The position numbers were made by a program, and so were the translations under genes. 64,000 bases of DNA from a virus (Duplodnaviria > Heunggongvirae > Uroviricota > Caudoviricetes). The DNA is taken from the IMG/VR virus record IMGVR_UViG_3300032167_000069; one strand, 5' to 3'. Shown here in pieces: positions 10,124 through 62,913 of the stretch (position 1 is its first letter; each line of letters begins with the position of its first letter). Under the pieces are notes generated by a model. The model saw only the letters and a program-made list of their open reading frames with translations, was not told the origin of the DNA and did not search any database.

Positions 10124-11167
10124 CTACATAGTGAATGCACATTTCCATTTTTCATAATCTGCAAGATACTCACGTTTCATCCTGTTAGATATTGTTGTGA
10201 GCGTTCTTGTTTTAGTGGTTGTGTATTTTTTAATTTTTTCTTTTCTGTCTATCTCAAGTGCAATAATGTTTGAAAAATCCACGGGTAAACCTGCACGTTC
10301 TTGCTCATAAGCTCTATAAAATATACCAGAAAGATAGATGCGTTTATAGGAAATCCTGCTCTTTTGACGGTTTGTGTCTTGTCGATTATCCATGTCATTT
10401 TCTGAGAATTTCTTATTAATTATAGGTCTTATAGTTTTTAAATCAACCGTTGGAGACCTAAATCCACGCATAATTACATTTCCTTCAGCTCTTGGTCTGC
10501 AAGTAACATAATGTGGATGTTCATAATTGAATGCGGTTAGTTTGCAAGCTTTTTCAAAATCTTCCTTGCACTCTTTATAGATTTCATAACTATGTCCTTC
10601 AAAATTAATCTTTAGATTATCTAAATCAACATCGTCTGATGTTACCCTAACCGCATCTTTATCTTCAAGCCCCGCAAAAGCCATCCAAAGGAACACTCTA
10701 TATGTTATATCCACTGTTTCTTTCTCCAATGAATCAAAATTACTTTTTTCATCATCAAGTATAGCTTTTAGATGGAGCGGAGATGCAACCATTTGATTTT
10801 GGATTTTATCTATGGTGTTAATTCTAACATCAAATATACCTTTGCTTACCTCGTATCCATTACGAGCGCACCATTTTACATATTCCTTTAAAATAATTAT
10901 AATTAATTCAGTGCTCTTTTCTCTCACGCCAGTCAATTCATTCACTACCGGCTGTAATACATCGGTTGTCTGTTGGGATAAATCAAGCCCCCATACATTT
11001 TCATATGGTTCAAACCAATTAAACACCTGCGTAATAAATGCTGACGTACTCTTTTTATGGGTATATGATGCCAAAAACTCTCTTTTCACTTTTTCGTTGT
11101 ACATATACAAACACCTCCCCTTAGTTATGCAGCTACAATACAATTCATCTGAACAGCCTTTTCCCAT
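10124..11167 (-). CDS. Hypothetical protein
   Basis: ORF of 347 aa. Confidence 0.45.
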   Translation of the reverse strand: MGKGCSDELYCSCITKGRCLYMYNEKVKREFLASYTHKKSTSAFITQVFNWFEPYENVWGLDLSQQTTDVLQPVVNELTGVREKSTELIIIILKEYVKWCARNGYEVSKGIFDVRINTIDKIQNQMVASPLHLKAILDDEKSNFDSLEKETVDITYRVFLWMAFAGLEDKDAVRVTSDDVDLDNLKINFEGHSYEIYKECKEDFEKACKLTAFNYEHPHYVTCRPRAEGNVIMRGFRSPTVDLKTIRPIINKKFSENDMDNRQDTNRQKSRISYKRIYLSGIFYRAYEQERAGLPVDFSNIIALEIDRKEKIKKYTTTKTRTLTTISNRMKREYLADYEKWKCAFTM

Positions 11168-32864: not shown

Positions 32865-34019
32865 TCACGATAAATCCCCCTTTATTAGCTTTTCTATGTC
32901 TGCGCCAAACTTCTGGTTATTATGAGAAATAACATAGTTTATATAATCTGGCTCAATCATTCTATAATAGGAAATAAGCCCAGCAAATACTTGTACGTCG
33001 TGCCTATCCCAATTAACGTTTTTCTTTTTGTCGCAAATATAATTGCAACACATAGCTTTGAATGCTTTTTTCTTTTGATGACCAATGGTTATCTCGTTAT
33101 CTTTGTTAAGCATAACACCCAAATTCCAGTTCCGACCAGCGGATGAACCGTATCTCGTTTTTTCTTTTTTGATTGCAAATGGAGCATCAAATCTTTTCAG
33201 AACATCGAGAACATATTCCTGCACCGCTTTGTAATCAAAATTCACTTTTGATGAAATCAAAATATCATCAGCATATCGTGTGTAAACAAAATGCTCGTCC
33301 ATCTTCCTTAAATCATTACAAAGTTGATGGTCGATTGGAATCATCATAATATTGGTGATTGTCGGCGATATAGGTGTTCCCTGTGGCAAACCGCCGTTTA
33401 AAAAACAAAGACTCAAAGCTCTTTTTAAGGCTTCGAGTCCATTTCTTCTTTTCACTATTTCACTAAACGGGAATATTTTTGAAAACATTGATAACACAAA
33501 CTCCTCTGTTGTGCTACCAAAAAAGTCCGAGAAATCAAGTTTTGCGAACCATTTACTTTCGTTCTGCTGATGTCTCTTAATTGAGTCAATTGTGCATCTA
33601 CCTTTTACATATGCAAAAGCAGATGTATGATACAATGCAAACATATTCTTTTCAAAAATAGTTTTCAAATTACGCAATGCATTCATCAATTCAGGTACAG
33701 GTGCATTAATTTCTCTCAAACCGCCACTTTTCTTTGGTATATGGAACGTTTCATACAGCGACTTCCTATCTACCTCAAATAAATTTGCATATTGAGAATT
33801 AAACTGTTCAAGAGCATAAATCATTGCGTTAAAATTGAATTTATCAAGAAATTTTTCGTTTAACTGCTCTCTGTAATGTGTTCTTGTGTTTGTTACATTG
33901 GGCACAATCATTCTTGATACATCAACCGCACCCGCCAGAATATCATCTAATGATAACTGATAATATATTGGCGATTGTTGAATTGTTACATAAGGCATAC
34001 TAATTCTCCTTTCGTACAT
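32865..34019 (-). CDS. Reverse transcriptase, retron/Abi-like type (not DGR type)
   Basis: IPKKSGGLREINAP (RT motifs 1/2), AKLDFSDFFGS (motif 3), GLPQGTPISP (motif 4), YTRYADDILISS (motif 5, YADD). KTRYGSS...NLGVMLN...IGHQKKKAF follows the pattern of the retron region after YADD. AYVKGRCTIDSIKRH sits at the NAxxH position. At 384 aa it has no maturase or endonuclease domain. Confidence 0.75.
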   Translation of the reverse strand: MYERRISMPYVTIQQSPIYYQLSLDDILAGAVDVSRMIVPNVTNTRTHYREQLNEKFLDKFNFNAMIYALEQFNSQYANLFEVDRKSLYETFHIPKKSGGLREINAPVPELMNALRNLKTIFEKNMFALYHTSAFAYVKGRCTIDSIKRHQQNESKWFAKLDFSDFFGSTTEEFVLSMFSKIFPFSEIVKRRNGLEALKRALSLCFLNGGLPQGTPISPTITNIMMIPIDHQLCNDLRKMDEHFVYTRYADDILISSKVNFDYKAVQEYVLDVLKRFDAPFAIKKEKTRYGSSAGRNWNLGVMLNKDNEITIGHQKKKAFKAMCCNYICDKKKNVNWDRHDVQVFAGLISYYRMIEPDYINYVISHNNQKFGADIEKLIKGDLS

Positions 34020-34059
34020 ACTGTAATCTACAAGATATATAAGCGTCTATGCAGCACGA

Positions 34060-34290
34060 GATGCTAAGCTTTTGCTGGTAACTTGGTCATCAGTGAGATG
34101 AGAGTTCATCTGATGAAAACCCAGTATTTATGCGGTATTTCTCTATTGATGGATTTGGGCAGACCTGTCGGGAAGCGTAAGCCACGGCTGTGGGTGATTG
34201 CCATCCTGAGCTGTCTCCCTGTGTTTTTCTCCAGCAAAGTGTTACTTTGGCTTATAACACAAAGCATCTGAAAACTCAGATTATTCATTA
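34060..34290 (-). ncRNA. Structured GC-rich ncRNA locus B, immediately upstream of the RT start (retron msr/msd-like position)
   Basis: Conserved module at 34216-34262. Inverted repeats cttttgctgg (34069-34078) and ccagcaaag (34221-34229) bracket about 160 nt. Several GC hairpins are present. The ORF 34106..34288 is a translation of the repeat. Confidence 0.5.
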
Positions 34291-34305
34291 CAAGTATGTT
34301 AATAT

Positions 34306-34545
34306 TTATTCATAACATTCATCTAAATCCTCATTGTCTATATTCACCTCTGAGTTGTCTTGTTCTACGTGAATATAGCAATAGGAATCTCCGCATATTG
34401 CAATTTTTGCTTCTGGCGGATAATTATTTAATTGTTCGATTAACTGTTTTACAGTTGTGTTTGGCAAGAAAACTTTTCTGTTTGCATCATACATATCATC
34501 TCTCCTAAATTTCATCAATATCGCAAGTCCATTGACGCCATTCAA
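34306..34545 (-). CDS. Hypothetical small protein
   Basis: 79 aa, between ncRNA loci C and B. Confidence 0.35.
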   Translation of the reverse strand: MNGVNGLAILMKFRRDDMYDANRKVFLPNTTVKQLIEQLNNYPPEAKIAICGDSYCYIHVEQDNSEVNIDNEDLDECYE

Positions 34546-34873
34546 ATCTCAAAAACTTCTGAATAGCTTCTTCGAGCGAATCAGCCTCGATAACTTTAGT
34601 CCACATATGGCTACCTATCAAAACTTCATCGTATCTTTTAGGTTCATCGCATACTACAATATCGCCGATGCGTTTCTCTGGAGTGTAACAACCTTTAGTT
34701 TCAGCGGTATAATATGCAATTAGGCGAGTGTTTAAGTAAAATTCACTTCCATAATATCCACAGAAACTTCCACGTCCATCAGTTTTGCACTGTTCAAACA
34801 GCCCAATTAAACTGTTTTCATATGCAACCTTTTTAACAGAGTCGTCATAAAACTTATTTACATAAAACTTCAT
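34505..34873 (-). CDS. Hypothetical protein
   Basis: 122 aa. Confidence 0.4.
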   Translation of the reverse strand: MKFYVNKFYDDSVKKVAYENSLIGLFEQCKTDGRGSFCGYYGSEFYLNTRLIAYYTAETKGCYTPEKRIGDIVVCDEPKRYDEVLIGSHMWTKVIEADSLEEAIQKFLRFEWRQWTCDIDEI

Positions 34874-35039
34874 TGAAAATACGCTCCTTTACATATAAAA
34901 TCAGTCTTTTATAAACACCTACGATCAAACATTATAAAATACAATCTTGAGGAAATCCGGATACCTTCGTCGGAACCACTTCAGATATATAAATTATAAA
35001 TTAAAGTAGGGATTTGTCTATGAAAAGTGTTGATAAATT

Positions 35040-35222
35040 GAGAATTTATCGACATAAGGACTTGACAAAGCACGCAATGACCTGTAGTGGAGGTGGTAGC
35101 ACCCGGCATCGGGCTCTGGAGGCGTCATCGCCGTCCCCTTCTTTTCGCCTATCAAAATATCACTTCGGCTGACAACACAAAGCATTTGAAATTAATCAAA
35201 TAATGCATCGTAGGTGTTTATG
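35040..35222 (-). ncRNA. Structured GC-rich ncRNA locus C, immediately 3' of the CLec-like gene stop. Shares the conserved module.
   Basis: cttttcgcctatcaaaatatcacttcggctgacaacacaaagc at 35150-35192, then a unique GC-rich hairpin segment. It shares an 11-nt identity (cccgatgccgg) with the VR-like region of the upstream gene. Confidence 0.45.
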
Positions 35223-35224
35223 GT

Positions 35225-36106
35225 TTATATTGTTAATATTGAAAAAAGTTCTTCTTCAGACACATCTTCGTACACGATTTCAGTTTGGATTACATCATAA
35301 TAACCCATATCGTCTGGTTCGTCACTTATAAGGATTTCAGGATTGATTTTCAAAGCGGGACGGACACCCAAAATGCCATCATACGCACTGCAATAGTAGT
35401 AATCACCGCCACGACTGACGTACCTGACGCCGCAACCACCGCCGGCATCGGGAGAACGGAGCAAATAATACCAGTTCTCGTCATATTCCACTTCTTCATC
35501 AACATTAGAATATTCTACGGCGTAATCAGTGGGCATAGCGGCTCTATCTGCATTTATTTCATTTTTAAAATATTCCCAGTAATCACCTTCGGACACGTTT
35601 CTTATTGTTCCACCGTACAAATTGGTGTATGAAGGCAGAAATACCTTTCTGGTTATTACGTCAAGTCGCTCATCTTCACGGGTCACTTCGCAATCAGGAA
35701 GTGCCGTCATTACCGTAGAATCATCTATTGCATCAATTTCCCAGCCCTCAAAAAATCTCAAGAAGCCGTGATGATTTGCATATCCTGTGTTTCCTGAAAC
35801 CAAATTTCCTGTGGGTGGCTCATCGTATTCGTGGCGTTTAATAAAGCATTCATCATCGCTACTGTTTAAAAACTGGTCGATATTTGATACCGAGTAGCGA
35901 TTATTACCATAACGCTGACGATAAGCATCGGGGTTTTCCACTTCTCTCGCATCGAATGCACGGAAATCCTCAATCCTTTCTGACATAAAGGTATTATCTC
36001 CGTTTACCTTTATCCAAGTAATCTTATGAGTACCCTCATCGCCAATACTATACGCACCAAAACGCACCTTTTCGCCAACATTGAGTTCGCTTATTCTTCG
36101 TGCCAT
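35225..36106 (-). CDS. CLec/FGE-fold protein with a DGR-variable-region-like C-terminus (putative receptor-binding/adhesin-type protein)
   Basis: The C-terminus NWYYLLRSPDAGGGCGVRYVSRGGDYYYCSAYDGILGVRPAL resembles FGE/CLec-type DGR target ends (LRS...RGG...GxRP/C.). It is Y/S/G-rich. Confidence 0.5.
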   Translation of the reverse strand: MARRISELNVGEKVRFGAYSIGDEGTHKITWIKVNGDNTFMSERIEDFRAFDAREVENPDAYRQRYGNNRYSVSNIDQFLNSSDDECFIKRHEYDEPPTGNLVSGNTGYANHHGFLRFFEGWEIDAIDDSTVMTALPDCEVTREDERLDVITRKVFLPSYTNLYGGTIRNVSEGDYWEYFKNEINADRAAMPTDYAVEYSNVDEEVEYDENWYYLLRSPDAGGGCGVRYVSRGGDYYYCSAYDGILGVRPALKINPEILISDEPDDMGYYDVIQTEIVYEDVSEEELFSILTI

Positions 36107-42076: not shown

Positions 42077-42224
42077 GGTGGGGATGGTAGGATTTGAACC
42101 TACGAAATCTTCTTGATTTACTGTTTTATGAAAAAGATTGCTGTTGGTGTCAAACTAAACACCTTTCATTAGACAATTTCCTTCAGCCACTTGGATACAT
42201 CCCCAAATATTTAATTATCATCCT
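42077..42224 (-). ncRNA. Oversized tRNA-like ncRNA (about 148 nt) with class-II D-arm, T-arm and acceptor, plus an internal insert carrying the AACAGCAAT motif
   Basis: Acceptor ggggatg/catcccc, D-arm tcc-aagtggctgaa-gga, variable hairpin aaatc-aagaa-gattt, T-arm gtagg-ttcaaat-cctac. The insert contains the ggtgtttagtttgacacc hairpin followed by aacagcaat. Confidence 0.5.
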
Positions 42225-42449: not shown

Positions 42450-42571
42450 TGGTGAGGGTGGCAGGACTCGAACCTACGACACACGGCTCCCAAAGCATTA
42501 AGAATATTGCTGTAAGCGTTTATCACTAAACACATTCTTATACGTTGCTCTGCCAACTGAGCTACACCCTC
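42450..42571 (-). ncRNA. Oversized tRNA-like ncRNA (122 nt) with the GTGATAAAC...ACAGCAAT insert
   Basis: Acceptor gagggtg/caccctc, canonical D-arm gctcagttggcagagc, T-arm, encoded CCA. A 45-nt structured insert (helix taagaat/attctta; hairpin gttta-gtga-taaac; acagcaat) replaces a normal anticodon arm. Confidence 0.5.
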
Positions 42572-43776: not shown

Positions 43777-44167
43777 AAAAAGCTTTTATAATCCCAAATT
43801 ATATGCATTAAATATTGCTGCGTGTGTCTTTAAAAGGTATATATCAATCCGCAAATGCGGTTATTGTTGAATGTTGGGTAAGTTTTTGCTTACCCGACGG
43901 AATTTCACCGTCCCATTACTCTAAAACCCGACCACCCATTACATAATCTACGAAAAGTTATGTAAAATGCCTTTGAGTAAATTGAACTTCACAAAAATTA
44001 GAAACGAGAGGCTAAAAAGTTTCAGAAAGGAGATGCTACTTCTTAGACCAAAAGAAGTATTTGCGCTGTGTTATGCCAAAAACTGACAGCAAAGCAAAAT
44101 CAAAAAATTTGTAAATTTGATAATATGTTTTATTATGTATTTGCTGTAAGCCTCTCTTATATGTTGA

Positions 44168-44286
44168 GCGGCGGGTGAGAATCGAACTCACGACACATAG
44201 TTTGGATTCTTGAAAAAATCGCTGTTAGTGAAGTTTATCACTCCACATTTTTTCGACTATTATTCTACCATCTGAACTACCGCCGC
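44168..44286 (-). ncRNA. Oversized tRNA-like ncRNA (119 nt) with the GTGATAAAC...ACAGCGAT insert
   Basis: Acceptor gcggcgg/ccgccgc, D-arm gttcagatggtagaat, T-arm gtgag-ttcgatt-ctcac. The insert has an 8-bp helix gaaaaaat/attttttc, then hairpin gtggag-tgataaa-cttcac, then aacagcgat. Confidence 0.5.
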
Positions 44287-44290
44287 ATAA

Positions 44291-44409
44291 GGTGCCCAGA
44301 GTTGGACTCGAACCAACGACCACGGAGTTACCAGCTCAATATAAAGTTGCAGTTTAAGGCTTTTTCAAACCTCAATTATTACGTGCTCTACCGACTGAGC
44401 TATCTGGGC
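44291..44409 (-). ncRNA. Oversized tRNA-like ncRNA (119 nt) with the GAAA-tetraloop hairpin plus AACTGCAAC insert
   Basis: Acceptor gcccaga/tctgggc, canonical D-arm gctcagtcggtagagc, T-arm gttgg-ttcgagt-ccaac. The insert is aggttt-gaaa-aagcct followed by aaactgcaac. Confidence 0.5.
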
Positions 44410-48039: not shown

Positions 48040-48595
48040 ATTTATAAGCCTACGCATAAGCCTATATGAAAACACACCTATCCGCATCTCATAACTACGA
48101 ACAGGTGTGCTTGATATATAGGTTTATACAAAAGGGCAGACCTCAAGCAAGTCAAAGCCTACCCTGTTATTTTTATGTTTCTCAAATCACACTCCATTAG
48201 ACCTTGCTAAACCAAACCTCAGTAACAAGTTTCCTTTCCCGTTGGGAACACCCACCTCAACTCATATAGCCTACCTTACACATTCCTGATGTGGCTCAGT
48301 ATTACTGACTATTGAGAAATAACATCACTTTGGAGAAGTTCGGAAAAACTTCGTGCTTATCAGCAGTTGCACAAGCCGAGTTTAGGTTGAGCTGAATACC
48401 TGTTGCCATTTTCACTATCTGACACGCTACGGGCTTAATTCCTCATAGCTTAACCGACGCCTTATGATTTGGGATAAGGTTCCCTTATGCCTGCGCATAT
48501 GCCCTCAACCACTATACTCTGGTTAGGAAAGAGTTTGCACGTATTCAGTTAGCCTTACGGCTATCCACCCTCACGAACTTGGACGACCGTGCATT
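48040..48595. ncRNA. Candidate large structured noncoding RNA region (about 550 nt with no ORF of 60 aa or more on either strand)
   Basis: No listed ORF lies between 48095 and 48593 in an otherwise tightly packed genome. GC content is higher than the surroundings. Local helices are numerous (cacacct/aggtgtg, ggtgcc-atca-ggcacc, cccacttcgg...). Confidence 0.3.
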
Positions 48596-48651: not shown

Positions 48652-48768
48652 TTCGGTTTGCGGTGTTGCCGCTCCGTCCGCTTGTATAGTAGCGGTGTTC
48701 GGTTTGCGGTGTTGCCGCTCCGTCCGCTTGTATAGTAGCGGTGTTCGGTTTGCGGACGTATGCGGCGC
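48652..48768. repeat. 2.5 tandem copies of a 47-bp unit, each with an internal dyad (iteron-like)
   Basis: The unit is cggtttgcggtgttgccgctccgtccgcttgtatagtagcggtgtt, repeated head to tail. Related degenerate copies occur at about 50033-50067, 50100-50140 and 50283-50310. Confidence 0.7.
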
Positions 48769-48825
48769 AAAGTTACCAAAACAAAGAAAAGCGGCGGAAT
48801 ATATCCGCCGCCCCTTTGTGTTTGT

Positions 48826-49083
48826 TTATGCTCTTATATATTCAACTGTTATTGGATGCCCCAATTCTTGCGCCCTTGTAAATGCTTTTTGTATCTGCTT
48901 TTTGTTTTCGCTCTTGTGTTCGTTGCTTAATTGCTCTATCAATTCACAATATTTTATTGATAAATTGTACTTGATTTTTTCAAGTTGCGCCGCCCTTGTT
49001 TTCGTTGGCTTGTCTGCTTGTTTCTTTTCAAGTCTTTTTATAAGTCTTTCAGCCGCCGCCGCTCTTTCTGATAATGTCATCAT
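48826..49083 (-). CDS. Hypothetical small protein in the GC-rich cassette
   Basis: 85 aa. Confidence 0.4.
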   Translation of the reverse strand: MMTLSERAAAAERLIKRLEKKQADKPTKTRAAQLEKIKYNLSIKYCELIEQLSNEHKSENKKQIQKAFTRAQELGHPITVEYIRA

Positions 49084-50075
49084 ATAGCCGCACCCCCTTT
49101 GTTGTTTTCTGCTTTCTTTCTTGCCCTGTACTCTCTGTAATATTCGGCGGTGTTGTTGCGCCTTTTCTTGCTTTCGTTTGTACCCTTTGCGGCGTTTACC
49201 TCTGCTGATTTGATTATATGCAGAAATTCCGGCGCATTTTCTGTAAAATAGTCAAGATATTTCTTTCTTATGTGTGTTATGTGTTCATTTACTGTTGATA
49301 CTGATTTTATATTGAGTCTATCAGCCGCCGCCCTTTGTGATAAGCCGCCGCCTATAAGTGCGGCAATCTGTTTCTGTCGTGGTGTAATTGTAGCCGCCGC
49401 CGCTCTGAGTGCCGCCCCTAATCTGTTCGCTGTTTCTTCGTCCATTTCGTCCCATTCGTCCGTATATGGTGTATATCTTTCGCCGCCTTTTATAAGCCTT
49501 GCAATGTATGTATTTACTGCTACCAATGCGCCGCCGCTTTCTTGTATAAATTCGTTGCTTAATTCGTATTCAGTAGCCGCCCTTTGTTTCATTATGTAGT
49601 TGTTTATTTCTATGTATGCTCTATGATACTGTTCGGCTATTGTTTCGCCTTCTGCTATTCCGTCAAGTATGCCGCTATAAGCTTGTGCAAAAAATTCTTG
49701 ACTGTCTGCGCTTGTTCGTGCGATTAAGTCAAACACATAAGCCGCCCCCAATGGTTCAGCCGCCGCTTGTTCTGCTTTCATCTTTGCGCCCGTCAATTCG
49801 TTTAGTATGCGGTATTGAGTATCAGTGCCGCCGCTCCTTTCGCAAGATTTGGCGGCGCTCTTTCTTGCTACCATAAGCGCCCCCCTTGCTATTCCTATGT
49901 CAATAGGTGCGCCGCTTTCGTCCGTTGTTGTCGGGTAGACTCTTATTTGCTCCGCTTTCGCCGCCGCTTTCTTGTCTGCCCTTGCTTGTTCGTGTGCCGC
50001 TTTTGTTGTTGGTGCGTCAACTGTTTTTGTTGTTGCCGCTCCGTCCTTGTGTAAATAGATAATTGAATGTAGCAT
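49080..50075 (-). CDS. Ala-rich protein with a C-terminal sigma-70 region-4-like HTH (sigma/anti-terminator-like regulator)
   Basis: TPRQKQIAALIGGGLSQRAAADRLNIKSVSTVNEHITHIRKKY resembles sigma region 4.2. The composition is strongly GC/Ala-biased (many gccgccgcc runs), unlike the rest of the window. Confidence 0.5.
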   Translation of the reverse strand: MLHSIIYLHKDGAATTKTVDAPTTKAAHEQARADKKAAAKAEQIRVYPTTTDESGAPIDIGIARGALMVARKSAAKSCERSGGTDTQYRILNELTGAKMKAEQAAAEPLGAAYVFDLIARTSADSQEFFAQAYSGILDGIAEGETIAEQYHRAYIEINNYIMKQRAATEYELSNEFIQESGGALVAVNTYIARLIKGGERYTPYTDEWDEMDEETANRLGAALRAAAATITPRQKQIAALIGGGLSQRAAADRLNIKSVSTVNEHITHIRKKYLDYFTENAPEFLHIIKSAEVNAAKGTNESKKRRNNTAEYYREYRARKKAENNKGGAAI

Positions 50076-50666
50076 TTTCTGCTCCTTTCTTATCGGCTAA
50101 AGTGTGCCGACTCCGCTTGTGTTTGGTGCGGAATACCAATATTATATAGTACCCTTTGCGGCGGTGTTCACTCTTGCAAGTGTGCCGCCGTTGTCAAGAT
50201 ACTATATATATAATAGCACACTTTTTCCGACTTGTCAATACAATTTTTTTGATTTTTTGAAAAAAGTTGTTTTTGCTCTCTATTAGTAGCGGTGTTCGGT
50301 TTGCAAATATACCGAAACAACAAATATATTATATAATTGTTTTATATGGTAGTTTTGCCGCCTTTCGTCCGTCCATTGTTTTTCCGTCCGTTTCTATGTT
50401 ACAATTTAACACTATGTAACAAAGGGGGGCTATTTTCCATATTTTCGTCCCCTTGAAATTCCACAGAATTGACAAGTTGCTTCATCACACCAGCACTTTT
50501 CCCTCTTTTCTCCTGAGCTCACCTTTTCTTCCATAAATAATAGGAAATATCGTACTTATTTAATGGTGTTTTTAAAGAACCGATGTCTCGTGATTCCTTG
50601 AAAATACCCAGAACGAGGGTTTAAACAAGAAATATCGAAAATTTATCAAAACAATTATAAAAAATA

Positions 50667-50695
50667 CTTGACAAACGCCTCTAAATATGCTATAA
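50667..50695 (+). promoter_or_regulatory. Consensus sigma70 promoter (TTGACA-17 nt-TATAAT) driving the rightward arm
   Basis: ttgaca aacgcctctaaatatgc tataat, about 55 nt before the ATG at 50748. It is flanked by two copies of the 16-bp motif tcaaaacaattataaa. Confidence 0.65.
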
Positions 50696-50747
50696 TGATT
50701 ATAGTCAAAACAATTATAAAGAATATAAGAAAGGAAACGATAAGACG

Positions 50748-51578
50748 ATGGGAACCATTATTTCAATTGACTTTACATCAAAGGTGAATAAGAAGAATGA
50801 CGGTATCATAAATGCAAAGGTTGTATCCGACTCCCGAAGATACCTTAAAAGAGATGCTCTTCTTCCGGCTCAAGAAGAAGTTCATATCGAACTTGCAAAC
50901 GAGCATACATCAGAACCAATTAAAAGCCTTGAAGATATAGAACGTTTTTCAAGCTATCTCATAAACAATGGTAGATACAGAGACAATATGCTCTTTATAG
51001 TTGGTATTAACTTTGGACTTCGTGTAAGTGATTTATTACAGTTAAGATTTACTCAGCTCATTAATGATGACCTATCTTTCAAAACCACATTCCCTATTCT
51101 GGAAAAAAAGACTAAGAACACCAGAAAGGTAAGACGTAACAGATACTTAACCATTAATGATGCAGTAATGGATGCAATTACACTGTACCTTGAACATACG
51201 CAGTGCAGGCTTGACGATTATATGTTCCGCAGTGAAAGCAACAGAGGCTCTAATCTTAACAAACCAATGAGCAGAATGTCAGTTGACCGCATTCTCAAAG
51301 AGGTTGCTAACACACTCAATTTGGATGTCAAGATTGCTACTCACACTATGAGAAAGACATTTGCTTATCATCAGATGTTAATGTCCAACAACGATCCTCG
51401 TAAACTTTTATTATTACAAAAGATGTTTGGACACTCATCAGCAGCACAGACACTCGACTACATCGGTATTACTGGTGAAGAGATTGAAGAAGCTTATATA
51501 AAGCTCAACTTGGGAAGCAGAGACCATTATCTTGTTGATAGCGTTATACAGGAGACTACATATTATCCTGCAAGCTAA
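50748..51578 (+). CDS. Tyrosine recombinase/integrase (small)
   Basis: ATHTMRKTFAYH gives HxxR. C-terminal LDYIGIT carries the catalytic Tyr. An arginine-containing box I region is present. Confidence 0.6.
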   Translation: MGTIISIDFTSKVNKKNDGIINAKVVSDSRRYLKRDALLPAQEEVHIELANEHTSEPIKSLEDIERFSSYLINNGRYRDNMLFIVGINFGLRVSDLLQLRFTQLINDDLSFKTTFPILEKKTKNTRKVRRNRYLTINDAVMDAITLYLEHTQCRLDDYMFRSESNRGSNLNKPMSRMSVDRILKEVANTLNLDVKIATHTMRKTFAYHQMLMSNNDPRKLLLLQKMFGHSSAAQTLDYIGITGEEIEEAYIKLNLGSRDHYLVDSVIQETTYYPAS

Positions 51579-53771: not shown

Positions 53772-56459
53772 TTGAGAAAAGCAAAGTGGAATTTAACCCT
53801 TCCGCTCTCTGAGGCTCGCAAAAATGACGAGGTAATTTCCTTGAGTGATAGCCAGATATTACGCTGGATTGATGAATTAAACCACATAGAAAATGCCGAT
53901 TTTGAGGCAAAAAAGCTGAAAAAAAGCATAAAAATGCTCAAAAAACAGCCAAATTCGCTCCAAAATAGGCGAGAAATCAAGAAATTGTATGAAAAACTCG
54001 ATAAAGTGCAGCATAAACCGGACTATATGTGCTTGGTAATAGATAAAGAGAAAGATTACCGTCGTGCTTGCAAAGGGTTTATAATTAACGGTATAAAGTA
54101 TGTACGATTGCTCGGAACTAATGGTGGCGTTAAAAATGAGACTATAGTTTTCGTCAGTGAGCGTTTATCTGGTGAACTAAGAAAGCGAATCAGCAATGGT
54201 CGTGATGAAAGTGTTAAACTTATTCCTGCAAAATTTGAAGCATATAGAGCATTAACTTGCAGTGGTTCAATTCCAGTTTCGATGCCTAAAGGAATTTTAG
54301 TAGTAAATGATTGCGAAACGGAGTTTTGTGAAGATATTATCAGTTTAAATGATGAAAATAGTGATGAGCCAAAGATGGAGCATATCACTAACGAAAAGAT
54401 TTTGCTTGATGAGTCTGATGGATATGGTCTTATGCTCCCCTCTCTTGCTGAACGCTGGTCAAAGGAATTGGGGCTCGACTATATAGTAAGTGGTGTAAAC
54501 ACCCGATTTTCGTGGGAAAAAGGTATGGTATTCTGCTTTGATTTCCTTGAATTTGCAGATACGGTTGCACACACGAGGATTGTGACGGATGCTTGGGGTA
54601 ATCAGGTAGATATTTCAAATGTAGAACTTATTCTTACAACGTCAATGCTTAAATTGTGGAGCTGCTACGACAGTATCGAACATTATTTACAATGTTGTGA
54701 AGAAAATCACTATACTTTCGGAATTGCTAAGACTTGTCCAAAAGAATTAGAAACAGAACGTGACTTGAACTATCAATTTATACAGAGCTACAATTTAGAT
54801 GATGACCAGATAAACGAGCTAATACAACCAACGATTGATGATATAAAGGATATTTTAAGCGGAGATTATAAAAAGGCAATACTTTTTCTCAAGGGTATGT
54901 ACTTGAATGAAAATAATATTGATTACATTGAAAGCGACTTTACAAAAGCTTTAATGATTGATAAAAGGATATATGATGATCCATTTGTTAAGAAGAAGAT
55001 TTACCAAATGATAAGAAAACGAATTACCGATGCTAAGATTGGTGTAATTCGAGTTCACGGAAACTACTCTATTGTTTCTGGAGACCCTTATTCTCTCTGT
55101 CAGAGCATATTTGGTTTACCGGTAACTGGTTTACTACGCAAGGGTGAAGCTTATAATCAGTTCTGGGCTGACCTTAATACAGATAAGGTTGCTTGTTTTA
55201 GGGCACCTATGACTTGCCATAACAATATTCGTTTAATGAAGATTGCTAATGGCGACGAAGTGAGACATTGGTATAGATATATGACCACCTGTACGGTATT
55301 CAACTCTTGGGACACTGCTGCTCACGCATTAAACGGTATGGACAAAGACGGAGATTTAGTTCTGTTGACGGATAACAAGGTTCTTGTAAACAATTACAGA
55401 CCGCTTCAAACTATAATGTGCGCTCAGCGAAATGCCACAAAGGTGGAAGTCACCGAGGAACATCTTATACAATCCAATATTGATAGTTTTGGTGATGATA
55501 TTGGTAAGACTACCAACTGGATTACAACTATGTTTGATGTTCAAGCCAGTTTCCCGCCTGAAAGCAAAGAGTATCAAACTCTTGAATATCGAATTATGTG
55601 CGGTCAGCTCTATCAACAAAATGCTATTGATAAGGCAAAGGGTATAATTGCAAAACCAATGCCGAAAGAATGGTATGATAGAGCAGCAAACCGTATAACC
55701 GAGGGGTTGTCTGAAGAAGAAATCGCTCGCAGAGAATTTAACCTCAGCATACTGGCTGATAAGAAACCTTATTTTATGAGATACATTTATCCTAATTTAA
55801 TGAGCCAGTATAATACATACATAAAAAACACAGACAAAAAGTGTATCAGAGAGTTTAGACAAAGTATTGATGAACTGTTGTCAAAAAATAAATCAGAGTT
55901 AACTGAAGCCGAAGCTGAGTTTGTTAGCTATTATTATCAAAGAATGCCCGTTGGAATACACGATTGCGTAATGAATAAGATATGTCGAAGATTTGAAGAT
56001 GAGTTTGACGGGTATTTTCTGAAAAATATATCTGATACAGAGTTTGATTATAGCATTATGAAAAGTGGTCAAGATTATACGACCACACAGTATAATACAA
56101 TTTCCAGATTATATGAACAATATACAAAACGTTTACAAGAGTATATGCAGTACAGTAAACGTGAACGTATTGACGAAGATGAATCTGCAAGCAAGCGTAG
56201 TTTAATGGTTCAAGATTTTAAAGTTGAATGTCAAAGAGCTTGCTCAAACGCTGCACAATTATGTGATATTATCTTAGATTTATGTTATAGCCGGAATGGT
56301 TCTAAGCAATTTTGCTGGGATATATGTAGCGAAGAGATAATATATAATTTGCTTATACATAACAACAATACTATATACTTCCCCACCAAGAACGATGATG
56401 GCGATATAGAATTTTGCGGAAAGAGATTTTCGCTTGAATCTAAAGGGGGAATACAATGA
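53772..56459 (+). CDS. Large hypothetical protein (895 aa)
   Basis: Long ORF directly after the sigma factor; no motif recognised. Confidence 0.5.
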   Translation: MRKAKWNLTLPLSEARKNDEVISLSDSQILRWIDELNHIENADFEAKKLKKSIKMLKKQPNSLQNRREIKKLYEKLDKVQHKPDYMCLVIDKEKDYRRACKGFIINGIKYVRLLGTNGGVKNETIVFVSERLSGELRKRISNGRDESVKLIPAKFEAYRALTCSGSIPVSMPKGILVVNDCETEFCEDIISLNDENSDEPKMEHITNEKILLDESDGYGLMLPSLAERWSKELGLDYIVSGVNTRFSWEKGMVFCFDFLEFADTVAHTRIVTDAWGNQVDISNVELILTTSMLKLWSCYDSIEHYLQCCEENHYTFGIAKTCPKELETERDLNYQFIQSYNLDDDQINELIQPTIDDIKDILSGDYKKAILFLKGMYLNENNIDYIESDFTKALMIDKRIYDDPFVKKKIYQMIRKRITDAKIGVIRVHGNYSIVSGDPYSLCQSIFGLPVTGLLRKGEAYNQFWADLNTDKVACFRAPMTCHNNIRLMKIANGDEVRHWYRYMTTCTVFNSWDTAAHALNGMDKDGDLVLLTDNKVLVNNYRPLQTIMCAQRNATKVEVTEEHLIQSNIDSFGDDIGKTTNWITTMFDVQASFPPESKEYQTLEYRIMCGQLYQQNAIDKAKGIIAKPMPKEWYDRAANRITEGLSEEEIARREFNLSILADKKPYFMRYIYPNLMSQYNTYIKNTDKKCIREFRQSIDELLSKNKSELTEAEAEFVSYYYQRMPVGIHDCVMNKICRRFEDEFDGYFLKNISDTEFDYSIMKSGQDYTTTQYNTISRLYEQYTKRLQEYMQYSKRERIDEDESASKRSLMVQDFKVECQRACSNAAQLCDIILDLCYSRNGSKQFCWDICSEEIIYNLLIHNNNTIYFPTKNDDGDIEFCGKRFSLESKGGIQ

Positions 56460-60106: not shown

Positions 60107-61150
60107 ATGCCTAAAACAAGTAAAGTTCAAACAATGAGTACAAAGCCGAAGCAAGCTTCTCCAGTTGAAGATATGCCTACTTCATTTTATTGCAGTAGAT
60201 GTCATCGGACGCATAAGAAGCAAAAAGGTAATTATCCCGCTTCTCAATCTCCGCTCTACAAGGGTAATGGCGGTTATCTAAACCATTGCAACCATTGTAT
60301 TGACGAGATGTTTGAACATTACAAGGCAGCCCTTGGCGATGAGCCTGAAGCTATCAGAAGAATTTGCTTAAAATTTGATATATATTGGAATATGGAAATA
60401 TATTCAATGTTAAATAAAGCAAGCACAAGCCAATCTCGTGTAAGAGCATATATAAGCAAAACAAATTTGTATAAGTATATCGGCAAAACATTCGACGATA
60501 CGCTTGATGAAGAATATGCTGCAAGTTTAGAGGCGGAACAATTAAAAGATATTGTAATTACCGATACAGAAAATATTCCCGAAGTCGAGGGTGTCGAAAT
60601 TTCTCCAGACATAGTTGAATTTTGGGGAACTGGCTTTGAACCCAATTTTTATCTCGAACTTGACAGAAAATACAAATACTGGACTGAGGGATTACCACAG
60701 AAACCTGAAAAGGGCGAAGAAGCAATATACAAGCAGGTTTGTATTTTAGAGGCTACAATCAACAGAGACAGTGCTGCTGGCAAATCTATTGAAAAGAATG
60801 TTAATGCATTAAACACGCTTCTTGGTAGTGCAAATTTAAAGCCAAGCCAGAAGAAACAAGACGAAGCTATTGATACAGCTTTTGACAGTAAACCATTTGG
60901 TGTTGGCATTAGATTATATGAAAATTCAAAGCCTATTCCTGAGCCTGATCCTGAATTACAGGACGTTGATGGAATAGTTAAATATATTTCAATTTGGTTC
61001 TTAGGGCATTTGTGTAAAATGCTTGGTATTAAAAATACATATTGCAAACTTTACGAGCAAGAGCTTGAAAAAATGCGTATTGATAATCCAGAGTTAGAAG
61101 AGGAAGACGACGAAACGTTGTTTAACGATATATTTGGTAGTGAAACTTAA
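60107..61150 (+). CDS. Hypothetical protein with an N-terminal zinc ribbon; possible terminase small subunit by position
   Basis: CSRCHRTHKK...CNHC. It lies immediately upstream of the large terminase. Confidence 0.4.
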   Translation: MPKTSKVQTMSTKPKQASPVEDMPTSFYCSRCHRTHKKQKGNYPASQSPLYKGNGGYLNHCNHCIDEMFEHYKAALGDEPEAIRRICLKFDIYWNMEIYSMLNKASTSQSRVRAYISKTNLYKYIGKTFDDTLDEEYAASLEAEQLKDIVITDTENIPEVEGVEISPDIVEFWGTGFEPNFYLELDRKYKYWTEGLPQKPEKGEEAIYKQVCILEATINRDSAAGKSIEKNVNALNTLLGSANLKPSQKKQDEAIDTAFDSKPFGVGIRLYENSKPIPEPDPELQDVDGIVKYISIWFLGHLCKMLGIKNTYCKLYEQELEKMRIDNPELEEEDDETLFNDIFGSET

Positions 61151-62913
61151 TGGATACACAAGCAACGTCTCGCCTAAAAGCTGAAAGACAACAGCGTATT
61201 CTCGATGGTGTTGCAGCTTGGGCTGGATATTATCGTAGTAATCCACATCGTTTTGCTAAAGACTTCCTCCATCTTGATTTACATCTATTTCAAAAAATCT
61301 TGTTAGTAATTATGAACATATCTAACTCATTTGTTTTTATTGCCAGTCGTGGTATAGGTAAAACATTCTTGAGTGCTATATATTGCTGCATACGCTGTAT
61401 TCTTTATCCCGGAACAAAGATATGCATTGCGTCTGGTACGAGAGGACAGAGTATAAATGTTCTTGAAAAAATCATGACAGAATTAAAGCCTAACTCTCCT
61501 GAGTTAGCGTATGAGATTGATGATAAAGAAACTCATATGAATGGTAATAATGCGCAAATTATGTTTAAAAATGGTTCATTCATAAAGGTAGTAACCGCTG
61601 GCGATAGTAGCCGTGGTAACAGAGCTCATATACTCTTAATTGATGAGTTCAGAATGGTTAAAAAAGATATTATTGATACTATTCTCAAAAAGTTCTTATC
61701 AAATCCAAGACATCCTAAATATATGGACAAACCAGAATATAAACATAGAAAAGATTTAAAAGAACCAAATAAAACATTATACCTGTCATCCGCTTACTAC
61801 AAAGATCATTGGTCATACGTTAAGACTAAGGACAATTGTAAGTTTATGTTGGATGAACGAAGAAAAGATTTTGTTTGCGGTTTCCCATATCAGCTCGCTC
61901 TTAAAGAGGGATTGCTTATGGAGGAAACTGTTATTGAACAAATGACAGAATCGGATTTTAGTGAAATCAAATGGGGTATGGAAATGTGTGCCGAATTTTG
62001 GGGAGACTCAGACGGCACCTTTTTTAATTTTGAATCAATTGCAAAAAACAGAAAAATTCAATTTCCAATGTTACCAGATTCACTATCATCTAAACTATCA
62101 AATAATACCAAAGTTCGCATTCAGCCAAAACAAAATGGTGAAAAAAGAATATTGTCAGCCGATATAGCTCTTATGTCGAGTAGCAAACACAAGAACGACG
62201 CATCGGCAATATTCATAAATCAACTCTTCCCCACTAAGGCTGGGCGATATTCAAATAATATTATATACACAGAAACATCAGAAGGAGCTCACACAGAAGA
62301 CCAAGCTCTTCGCATAAGAAAATTATTCGAGGAGTACGAGTGCGATTACATCGTTCTTGACGTAAAAGGTGTTGGTTTAGGTGTATATGATGCTCTTGCA
62401 AGAGTTATTACCGACTCAGAAACAGGAGAAATTTATCCTGCTTTATCGTGTTGTAACAATCCTGAAATGGCTGCAAGATGTACAGATCGTGGAGCTGAAA
62501 AGGCTATATGGGCTATAAATGGCTCTGCTCGTTTTAACTCTGATTGTGCGATTTTGTTGCGAGAAGGATTTAAGACAGGAAAAATACGTTTATTAGCAAC
62601 TGAATATGACGGCGAAGAAGCTCTTGGAGGTATAAAAGGATATAACTCCCTATCTTCTTCAGATAAAATGATATTTACATTGCCGTATGTACATACAACT
62701 TTGTTAATTAGCGAACTTATTAACCTAAAACACGAAGAGTCGGGCGGACTGGTAAAAATCATCGAAAAAAGCGGTATGAGAAAAGATAGATATTCAAGCT
62801 TGAGCTACAATTATTATGTTGCGTGCCAACTTGAAAAGAATATTAAGAAACGTTCAAGTTCTGATGATATTAACAGTCTGTTTATGTTTAGAGCTCCAAA
62901 AATTAAACGATAA
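61150..62913 (+). CDS. terL: Terminase large subunit
   Basis: Walker A IASRGIGKT, Walker B ILLIDEF. 587 aa with a C-terminal nuclease-sized domain. Confidence 0.65.
   Translation: MDTQATSRLKAERQQRILDGVAAWAGYYRSNPHRFAKDFLHLDLHLFQKILLVIMNISNSFVFIASRGIGKTFLSAIYCCIRCILYPGTKICIASGTRGQSINVLEKIMTELKPNSPELAYEIDDKETHMNGNNAQIMFKNGSFIKVVTAGDSSRGNRAHILLIDEFRMVKKDIIDTILKKFLSNPRHPKYMDKPEYKHRKDLKEPNKTLYLSSAYYKDHWSYVKTKDNCKFMLDERRKDFVCGFPYQLALKEGLLMEETVIEQMTESDFSEIKWGMEMCAEFWGDSDGTFFNFESIAKNRKIQFPMLPDSLSSKLSNNTKVRIQPKQNGEKRILSADIALMSSSKHKNDASAIFINQLFPTKAGRYSNNIIYTETSEGAHTEDQALRIRKLFEEYECDYIVLDVKGVGLGVYDALARVITDSETGEIYPALSCCNNPEMAARCTDRGAEKAIWAINGSARFNSDCAILLREGFKTGKIRLLATEYDGEEALGGIKGYNSLSSSDKMIFTLPYVHTTLLISELINLKHEESGGLVKIIEKSGMRKDRYSSLSYNYYVACQLEKNIKKRSSSDDINSLFMFRAPKIKR

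Follow-up and report, generated by a model that had tools for sequence, protein, structure and literature searches.

The 64,000-nt stretch analysed here (the window) comes from a Caudoviricetes phage, IMG/VR record IMGVR_UViG_3300032167_000069, with a genome of ~106 kb that is related to Bacillus SPbeta. Its genes change strand between 50075 and 50748, as an earlier examination of the letters alone (the sequence-only reading) had proposed, and at this switch lies a locus in which a gene for a 331-aa protein with a helix-turn-helix (HTH) is read leftward, on the minus strand, with copies of one repeat on both sides of it. Downstream of the gene, a perfect tandem array of the repeat is followed by a structured noncoding RNA (ncRNA). 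Upstream, a single partial copy precedes the promoter of the gene, and beyond that copy a divergent gene encodes a tyrosine recombinase.

The array occupies 48652-48755 (minus strand) and is the only strong tandem repeat found by Tandem Repeats Finder (TRF) across the window: 2.3 copies of a 46-bp unit, with a 100% match and a TRF score of 208. On the minus strand the unit reads CCGCAAACCGAACACCGCTACTATACAAGCGGACGGAGCGGCAACA. The sequence-only reading had described two and a half perfect copies of a 47-bp unit reaching 48768, of which the perfection of the repeat held but the unit length, the copy number and the end did not. It had correctly seen a dyad inside each unit, CCGCT-N8-AGCGG, which a sequence scan placed at 48678-48695 and 48724-48741. 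The dyad lies within a longer core, GAAC-N16-CGGACGG, at 48720-48746 in unit 1 and at 48674-48700 in the second copy (minus strand). With 104 bp, less than the assembly k-mer of 141 suggested by the names of sister contigs, the array of the window is probably complete.

Additional copies of the unit, reported earlier for 50033-50310, were recovered on the other side of the HTH gene. At 50284-50304 (minus strand), preceding the -35 hexamer of the HTH-gene promoter by 45 nt, 21 of 21 nt of the 5' part of the unit (TAGTAGCGGTGTTCGGTTTGC) recur as a single copy. This 21-nt sequence is present three times in 64 kb, with nothing else at up to three mismatches, and was absent from all of 100 shuffles; the array motif is confined to 48.65-50.3 kb of the window. 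A 15-nt piece of the 3' half of the unit (GGACGGAGCGGCAAC) lies at 50033-50047 (minus strand), within codons 10-14 of the HTH gene. It is lineage-specific, being absent from the matching place in the relative L005, and may be a chance occurrence. A looser copy of the unit is found near 50108-50132, in the leader of the HTH gene.

The HTH gene (49080-50075, minus strand) was defined by open reading frame (ORF) calls, and its product by domain, profile and fold searches. The protein comprises a beta/alpha domain (residues 1-48), a helical bundle (59-172), an HTH region at about 213-280 with the HTH itself at 229-272, and a basic C-terminal helix. The sequence-only reading had the protein end in a sigma region-4 HTH; ~60 residues follow the HTH, which by sequence is equally LuxR/GerE-like and sigma-region-4-like, and the GerE (PF00196) score of the window protein, 22.6 bits, falls just under the Pfam cut-off of 23.5. 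Across the protein family, GerE or Sigma70_r4_2 was matched in 28-30 of 35 members (GerE in 28 of 35, with a best value of 1.9e-8), and the family profile matched the HTHs of NarL, VpsT and sigma-H in the PDB, the NarL DNA-binding domain at 9.8e-6. Profile comparison with the family of the phage's own 177-aa sigma factor gave 94.9% overall; by part, hhalign gave 97% for the C-terminal part against region 4 of that sigma factor and 3% for the N-terminal part. That the 331-aa protein carries a sigma4/LuxR-type DNA-binding domain is established. No family was detectable by sequence search for its N-terminal 200 residues, Pfam sigma region 2 was not matched in any of the family members scanned, and a PHROG search with the 331-aa protein returned no match. 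In Foldseek searches, whole extracytoplasmic function (ECF) sigma factors aligned over 160-250 columns with probabilities of 0.7-0.97 and E values of 0.004-0.5, and a complete sigma architecture is possible. The family forms ~70 clusters (50% identity) at E<=1e-30, all of them metagenomic and none named.

An 85-aa ORF (48826-49083, minus strand) with its own Shine-Dalgarno sequence overlaps the stop codon of the HTH gene (ATGA), an overlap through which it is translationally coupled to that gene. It has no homologue beyond its own 90% cluster among 5.8 billion proteins and is absent from L005, L014, L016, L018 and L024, which ruled it out as a conserved partner or anti-sigma factor.

Consensus scans, the only basis for these calls, placed a sigmaA-type promoter of the HTH gene at 50210-50238 (TTGACA-17-TATTAT with a TG) and a second, weaker match at 50141-50170 (both minus strand). 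An intrinsic terminator of the HTH operon at 48787-48815 (minus strand) lies 32 nt before the array, and terminators are likewise placed in relatives. Directly past the array is the ncRNA of ~470 nt (48115-48585, minus strand), so that the minus-strand order is terminator 48787-48815, array, ncRNA and a terminator at 48133-48165, where the ncRNA ends. No sigma70-like promoter was found by consensus scan between the first of these terminators and the ncRNA. Searches with nhmmer detected the ncRNA behind the arrays of all type-A relatives and of several type-B relatives (types are introduced below), and compensatory changes, also visible in the alignment, occur at 9 of the 33 pairs predicted for its core. 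Neither the repeats nor the ncRNA belong to a family in Rfam, where RAGATH-16 alone was matched, below threshold (48400-48479; 33.7 bits, gathering score 65.6). When the ncRNA was made into an nhmmer profile, the SPbeta yonN-yonK noncoding region was not matched, and this search gives no support for homology with the late-operon ncRNA of SPbeta. The variable pair of protein and site is thus placed immediately ahead of a conserved structured RNA, which itself heads the leftward, non-structural gene arm.

Co-variation of the protein and the repeats among relatives

Relatives were collected through the HTH protein, through YonV and through the recombinase (80 IMG/VR loci). They share one order of parts, which starts with the divergently oriented recombinase gene, purine-rich sequence and the conserved element TGTTACATAG-N8-TGTAACATAG. 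A T-poor spacer and one copy of the repeat core come next, and then the HTH gene with a terminator behind it, the perfect tandem array, a noncoding region that is conserved and a homologue of the 290-aa gene. In these relatives the repeat-core copy precedes a TTGACA...TATAAT promoter by 30-50 nt, the HTH genes encode 230-460 aa, and the arrays have a period of 32-92 bp and from one to more than six copies. Besides dozens of IMG/VR contigs, L004, L005, L014, L016, L018, L023-L027 and L032 keep the layout. Single upstream copies are also present in L004, L005, L018, L020, L051, L059 and L065, and in nine of nine cases compared the upstream copy has the orientation of the array and the gene. INPHARED searches at the nucleotide and protein levels gave no match for the 6-kb region or for either type of protein encoded in this slot, and a metagenome contig scan returned no relatives; a DNA search with the repeat core found one contig of a Ruminococcus metagenome-assembled genome (MAG).

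Within this shared layout, the arrays differ in unit and in period: 46 bp in the window and in L013 (whose array is identical to that of the window, with at least 2.8 copies at a contig end), 55 in L005, 58 in L024-L027, ~71 in L014, 39 in L020 and 57-92 in L032, L051, L057, L059 and L065. Copy number varies even where the protein is identical, with one unit in L024 and L026 and at least three in L025 and L027. The HTH protein is the most diverged product of the neighbourhood, at 30-60% identity versus 62-79% for the recombinase and 46-87% for YonV. In L020/L021, YonV is 87% and the recombinase 79% identical to their window counterparts but the HTH protein only 30%, and the array consists of an unrelated 39-bp unit, the 5' part of which occurs once upstream of the promoter. 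Nucleotide homology between L020 and the window begins exactly at 50393.

At least three types of protein (A, B and C) occupy the slot, and all those tested have a C-terminal sigma4/GerE HTH. Types B (320-380 aa) and C (260 aa) are barely seen by the hidden Markov model of the family, and two of these proteins exceed Pfam cut-offs (Sigma70_r4_2, 35.2 bits; Sigma70_ECF, 26.2 bits). The core of the window unit is retained in type-A relatives, with xAAC-N16-CGGA kept across type-A alleles. CCGCT-N8-AGCGG is partly retained in relatives and absent from the L020 unit, and the sites of L057 and L065 have clear dyads. Loci of types B and C each have an array of their own together with an upstream copy of its unit, 20-25 nt long and 92-100% identical; in the type-B loci L051, L059 and L065 this copy precedes TTGACA by 30-45 nt. 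Since site and protein vary together and the recombinase does not, it is the HTH protein, not the recombinase, that would read the repeats, and the co-variation is consistent with the earlier proposals that these repeats are cognate binding sites and that the locus is a regulatory cassette at a divergent control region. The cassette is a standing hypervariable locus rather than an insertion specific to one phage.

The recombinase, the small tyrosine recombinase expected from 50748, has 276 aa (50748-51578, plus strand; PF00589, 58.7 bits; phrog_216) and a perfect sigmaA-type promoter at 50668-50696 (plus strand, consensus scan). Read from the sequence, it retains the catalytic Arg, His-x-x-Arg, His and Tyr, and it may, unlike MrpR, the integrase-fold master repressor of SPbeta, be active as a recombinase. 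Its gene is the best conserved of the neighbourhood, and ~15 further homologues were found in unrelated contexts. The sequence-only reading had offered the recombinase as a candidate binder of the repeats; it is probably not, because it stays 62-79% identical across alleles whose repeats are unrelated and change completely. A role as an MrpR-like repressor acting on the repeats was also rejected, as there is no such co-variation, the motif is not dispersed and an MrpR homologue is encoded elsewhere.

Between the repeats lie two minus-strand ORFs which, as had been noticed, differ in composition from the rest of the window: the cassette has a GC of 0.46, compared with ~0.35 on either side, and an AT skew of -0.44. 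The gccgccgcc-type runs are equally real, 20 of the 24 minus-strand occurrences of GGCGGC in the window falling in 48.8-50.36 kb, but Ala accounts for 57 of the 331 codons of the protein (17%) and not for ~30%. T makes up 15% of third positions in the HTH gene, versus 32-41% in 19 other ORFs, and its codon usage is shifted to ATA, GAC, GGC and GCG/GCA. Avoidance of T on the sense strand spans the gene, its leader and the array (arrays contain 0-18% T), and the T-poor strand is kept across protein types in phages of 35-50% GC. Because this avoidance is synonymous, it acts at the level of the nucleic acid; we speculate that it would clear both strands of sigmaA-like hexamers, U-tract terminators and palindromes containing A/T. 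Conservation of the compositional offset in phages of such different GC content indicates that composition reflects constraint and not recent import.

These data bear on the possibility, raised in part by the sequence-only reading, that the region is a recent horizontal insertion or a mobile, excisable cassette in which the 21-nt repeats would be att-like sites for the 276-aa recombinase. The gene is flanked by exact 21-nt direct repeats and has as its neighbour a recombinase with intact R/HxxR/H/Y residues, its composition is unlike that of the flanks, and the homology to L020 breaks sharply at 50393. However, every close relative that was examined has an occupied slot, with the odd composition conserved. 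No empty-site relative with close synteny was found, the only loci without the cassette being the distant L098 and L104 (YonV 37%), and the flanking repeats failed the co-variation test, being unrelated between alleles in which the recombinase is conserved. We consider acquisition or excision of this kind very unlikely.

The left boundary of the variable cassette is the conserved element, an inverted repeat at 50394-50421 (minus strand). Before it, within 50394-50620, are ATAGCCCCCC and purine-rich GGAAAAG-type repeats. By eye, 50394-50620 was likened to the SPbeta yonP-yonR intergenic region (L022 6100-6370), and contigs L042, L044 and L049 terminate at its counterpart. More generally, 48 of the 80 related contigs, several of them 100-121 kb long, end no more than 5 kb upstream of the recombinase gene. 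In SPbeta, the point at which the genome opens and the pac site map to the yonP-yonR intergenic region, by yonO and yonV (bioRxiv 10.1101/2021.11.22.469490). The array or the conserved element could accordingly be a packaging signal or genome end, recognized by the HTH protein as a small-terminase-like factor, and this would fit both the SPbeta pac map (bioRxiv 10.1101/2021.11.22.469490) and the resemblance, again by eye, of the purine-rich stretch and a ATACCCCC...TTGTAA element in 50394-50620 to the SPbeta region, as well as the clustered contig ends. Yet 21 of the 48 ends lie within perfectly periodic sequence and ~2.55-kb Logan contigs (k=31) break off in the first unit. Any perfect repeat that exceeds the assembler k-mer should cause such breaks, and the contig ends are thus no evidence of a physical genome end; the window and L001 assemblies, moreover, pass through the whole 104-bp array. 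A pac site is also expected to track the conserved terminase, but the repeats are hypervariable, and the TerL gene (61150-62913) is 12 kb away. A packaging function is, in our judgement, highly improbable.

Evidence bearing on a proposed regulatory function

Taken together, the array, the upstream copy and the GC-rich HTH gene can be treated as one module, which we interpret with moderate confidence as a phage-specific transcription factor with its cognate sites. From the anatomy of the module, its conservation, the co-variation, the copy-number polymorphism and the fold of the HTH, we infer DNA binding by the 331-aa protein, a direction of regulation and, conceivably, sigma activity. The protein would recognize a sequence of ~20-30 bp at two places, upstream of its own promoter and in the array. 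Host RNA polymerase would supply a basal level of the protein, binding at the upstream site would then produce autoregulation, and loading on the array would control transcription into the ncRNA and the leftward arm, with the array copy number setting the avidity or strength of that control. Joint diversification of protein and sites among related phages would give each lineage a private specificity, much like that of heteroimmune repressor/operator pairs.

In this allele only, the protein could possibly act as a dedicated sigma-like factor, the units having the form GAAC-N16-CGGACGG with a geometry similar to that of ECF promoters and the fold being sigma-like; it would then be a private sigma factor served by tandem promoters. 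We rank this version below a general regulator because the pattern is missing in types B and C, is modest over shuffles and would have to operate with upstream copies that comprise the 5' 20-25 nt only. As a general rule, an ECF-promoter pattern was rejected for the type B and C arrays.

Several points weigh against a transcription factor of either kind. GAAC-N16-CGG is absent from the type B and C arrays, and its count of 9 in 25 units compares with a shuffle mean of 4.3 and a shuffle maximum of 9. The upstream copies, with the 5' 20-25 nt of the unit, do not include the '-10' part. A regulator gives no account of the T-poor strand composition, and the assigned function draws on anatomy and co-variation, the second of which block exchange of the cassette could produce by itself. 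Finally, perfect tandem arrays of operators or promoters are seldom seen with transcription factors and would be more in keeping with iterons or centromeres.

The main rival, an origin having been raised along with a partition site by the sequence-only reading, is an iteron-type origin or copy-control locus, in which the HTH protein would be an initiator acting on the array, the upstream copy would serve autoregulation and the ncRNA would be a primer or activating transcript. Perfect direct repeats beside the gene of a co-varying DNA-binding protein, with one copy near its promoter, are what such a locus would contain, and incompatibility predicts diversifying Rep/iteron pairs. Like the replicons of P1 (RepA, incC/incA) and F (RepE, incB/incC), the module has a gene bracketed by its own sites, a downstream array, diverging specificity and a copy number that matters. 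In addition, it is placed where the genes change strand, cumulative GC skew reaches its minimum 2.5-3 kb away from the array (51-52 kb), and in the window the array is followed by an A+T run of 28 nt. That run, however, is not conserved among relatives, and the skew switch coincides with the change in gene orientation and is therefore not independent evidence. The fold is of the sigma4/LuxR type and not winged-helix, as in Rep, and a fold search with the 331-aa protein gave no Rep-like match. The iterons of P1 and F are ~19-22 bp, whereas the period here is 32-92 bp, depends on the allele and is no multiple of the helical repeat. Some genomes (L024, L026) have a single unit, the one upstream site does not overlap the promoter, and neither a DNA unwinding element at the module nor a DnaA box within 48-51 kb was found. 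An origin of this type therefore seems unlikely, though less so than any other rival.

Alternatively, the array could be a partition centromere resembling sopC of F, bound by the HTH protein in a prophage of plasmid-like habit. In geometry the module is much like sopB-sopC, a ~330-aa gene followed directly by ~40-90-bp tandem repeats with short dyads (sopC has 12 43-bp repeats with internal dyads), and a variable copy number would fit. Unlike in the Sop system, no ParA partner is evident: no ParA, ParM or TubZ-type NTPase was found by Pfam and PHROGs in the 27 window ORFs scanned, which comprise all those in 48-63 kb, eight in 40-48 kb and others, with ~26 ORFs of at least 150 aa in 0.7-30 kb left out, and none appears among the called genes listed near the locus in L001 and L005. 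Nor was a ParB-like domain found by Pfam or a ParB-like match by fold search in the 331-aa protein. The additional tyrosine integrases of the phage suggest integration over plasmid maintenance, and the element looks like an integrating SPbeta-like phage. We regard a centromere as improbable.

If the module is a transcription factor with its sites, a more specific and decidedly tentative proposal is that it forms a 'private-channel' switch, in which a lineage-specific protein and a homogenised site array, tunable by copy number, would gate one conserved structured RNA at the lysis/lysogeny control region. Co-resident related phages would then be unable to trigger or silence each other, and heteroimmunity would arise from a sigma4-type factor, a titrating array and an ncRNA instead of a repressor with its operators, a new kind of switch that we consider unlikely.

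Comparison with known systems

A C-terminal HTH shared by fold and sequence links the 331-aa protein to both the LuxR/GerE/NarL factors and sigma-70 region 4. ECF sigma factors are typically autoregulated, and the module likewise has a site upstream of the protein's own promoter; the unit of this allele resembles ECF promoters in its AAC-N16-CG geometry, to which a short dyad is added. In contrast to LuxR and sigma systems, the module has an N-terminal 200 residues with no detectable family, perfect site arrays behind the gene and a hypervariable pair of protein and site. The RinA/ArpU/Ltr late regulators of Gram-positive phages are small proteins related to sigma region 4 that turn on one operon from an upstream site; they have ~140 aa and act at the terS late operon, and to our knowledge these systems have no tandem site arrays.

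Lysis-lysogeny decisions have a model in the SPbeta-like phages, but we know of no study of their gut relatives, which are abundant. The phage described here shares homologues of YonV, YonO, YonJ and MrpR_N_CB with SPbeta, and its putative regulator gene is followed by a probable binding site and a noncoding RNA as in aimR-aimP-aimX. The lysis-lysogeny circuitry of SPbeta includes AimR-aimX and MrpR (YopR) with its SPBRE sites (PMC10516654). Unlike AimR, the 331-aa protein has no TPR (tetratricopeptide repeat) domain and no conserved peptide gene, and it is the DNA specificity that varies, not a peptide. Unlike the SPBRE sites of MrpR, the motif of the module is local and not dispersed, and the MrpR homologue is encoded elsewhere, at 10124-11167.

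The locus is real, conserved, widespread and unannotated. Its likely constituents, an HTH regulator or a sigma-like factor together with the cognate sites, are familiar in kind; new is an unusual anatomy that combines hypervariable specificity, perfect tandem site arrays and a linked conserved ncRNA. It appears to be the most variable regulatory element of SPbeta-like gut phages, and it explains why assemblies of these 100-120-kb phages break at one spot. It offers a new large structured RNA and a family of candidate orthogonal pairs of protein and DNA site, in which the proteins fall into ~70 clusters (E<=1e-30) and three or more types of protein occupy the slot. Were the protein a sigma factor, it would represent a new, very divergent sigma family with tandem promoters; were it an initiator, it would place the origin of this phage group.

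Other features of the phage genome

Relatedness to SPbeta is seen in a YonV homologue (38% identical to SPbeta yonV), in a YonO-type RNA polymerase and a YonJ exonuclease, and the phage also encodes HU and the 177-aa sigma factor. A contig nearly identical to that of the window was binned with a Ruminococcus MAG from sheep rectum, which is weak evidence on the host. The 347-aa MrpR_N_CB protein (10124-11167, minus strand; PF22822, 47.9 bits) is likely, on sequence grounds, to be the counterpart of the SPbeta master repressor. Besides this MrpR-like protein, a 348-aa tyrosine integrase is encoded next to HU.

The rightward arm carries the polymerase and the late genes, and the leftward arm is non-structural, with genes for an RNA-binding protein, tRNAs, a reverse transcriptase, NAMPT and a ligase. 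Promoters of the YonO-type polymerase (a T7-like ACTATA box) were set aside as an explanation of the repeats, since the leftward arm is non-structural and the late genes are on the other arm. The reverse transcriptase gene (RVT_1, 32865-34019, minus strand) is located beside a DUF6273/Hoc-like gene (35225-36106), with an imperfect pair of 58-nt repeats (34216-34273 and 35134-35191, 74% identity), and 32865-36106 (minus strand) may be a diversity-generating retroelement. Such an element was rejected as the source of the A/T asymmetry of the cassette: the reverse transcriptase is 15 kb off, and no template/variable-region relation to the cassette was seen.

In two relatives, the YonO-type polymerase gene is interrupted by group I introns (RF00028, 76-88 bits; L005 4157-4484 and L014 20-323) and is called as two ORFs, whereas the window copy (53772-56459) is uninterrupted. 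Five Rfam tRNA matches of 108-126 nt on the minus strand (25176-25283, 42079-42204, 42453-42571, 44167-44286 and 44293-44409) were not called by ARAGORN and may be tRNA genes with long insertions or introns. Alongside them are eight ordinary phage tRNAs, which mostly read NNA codons.

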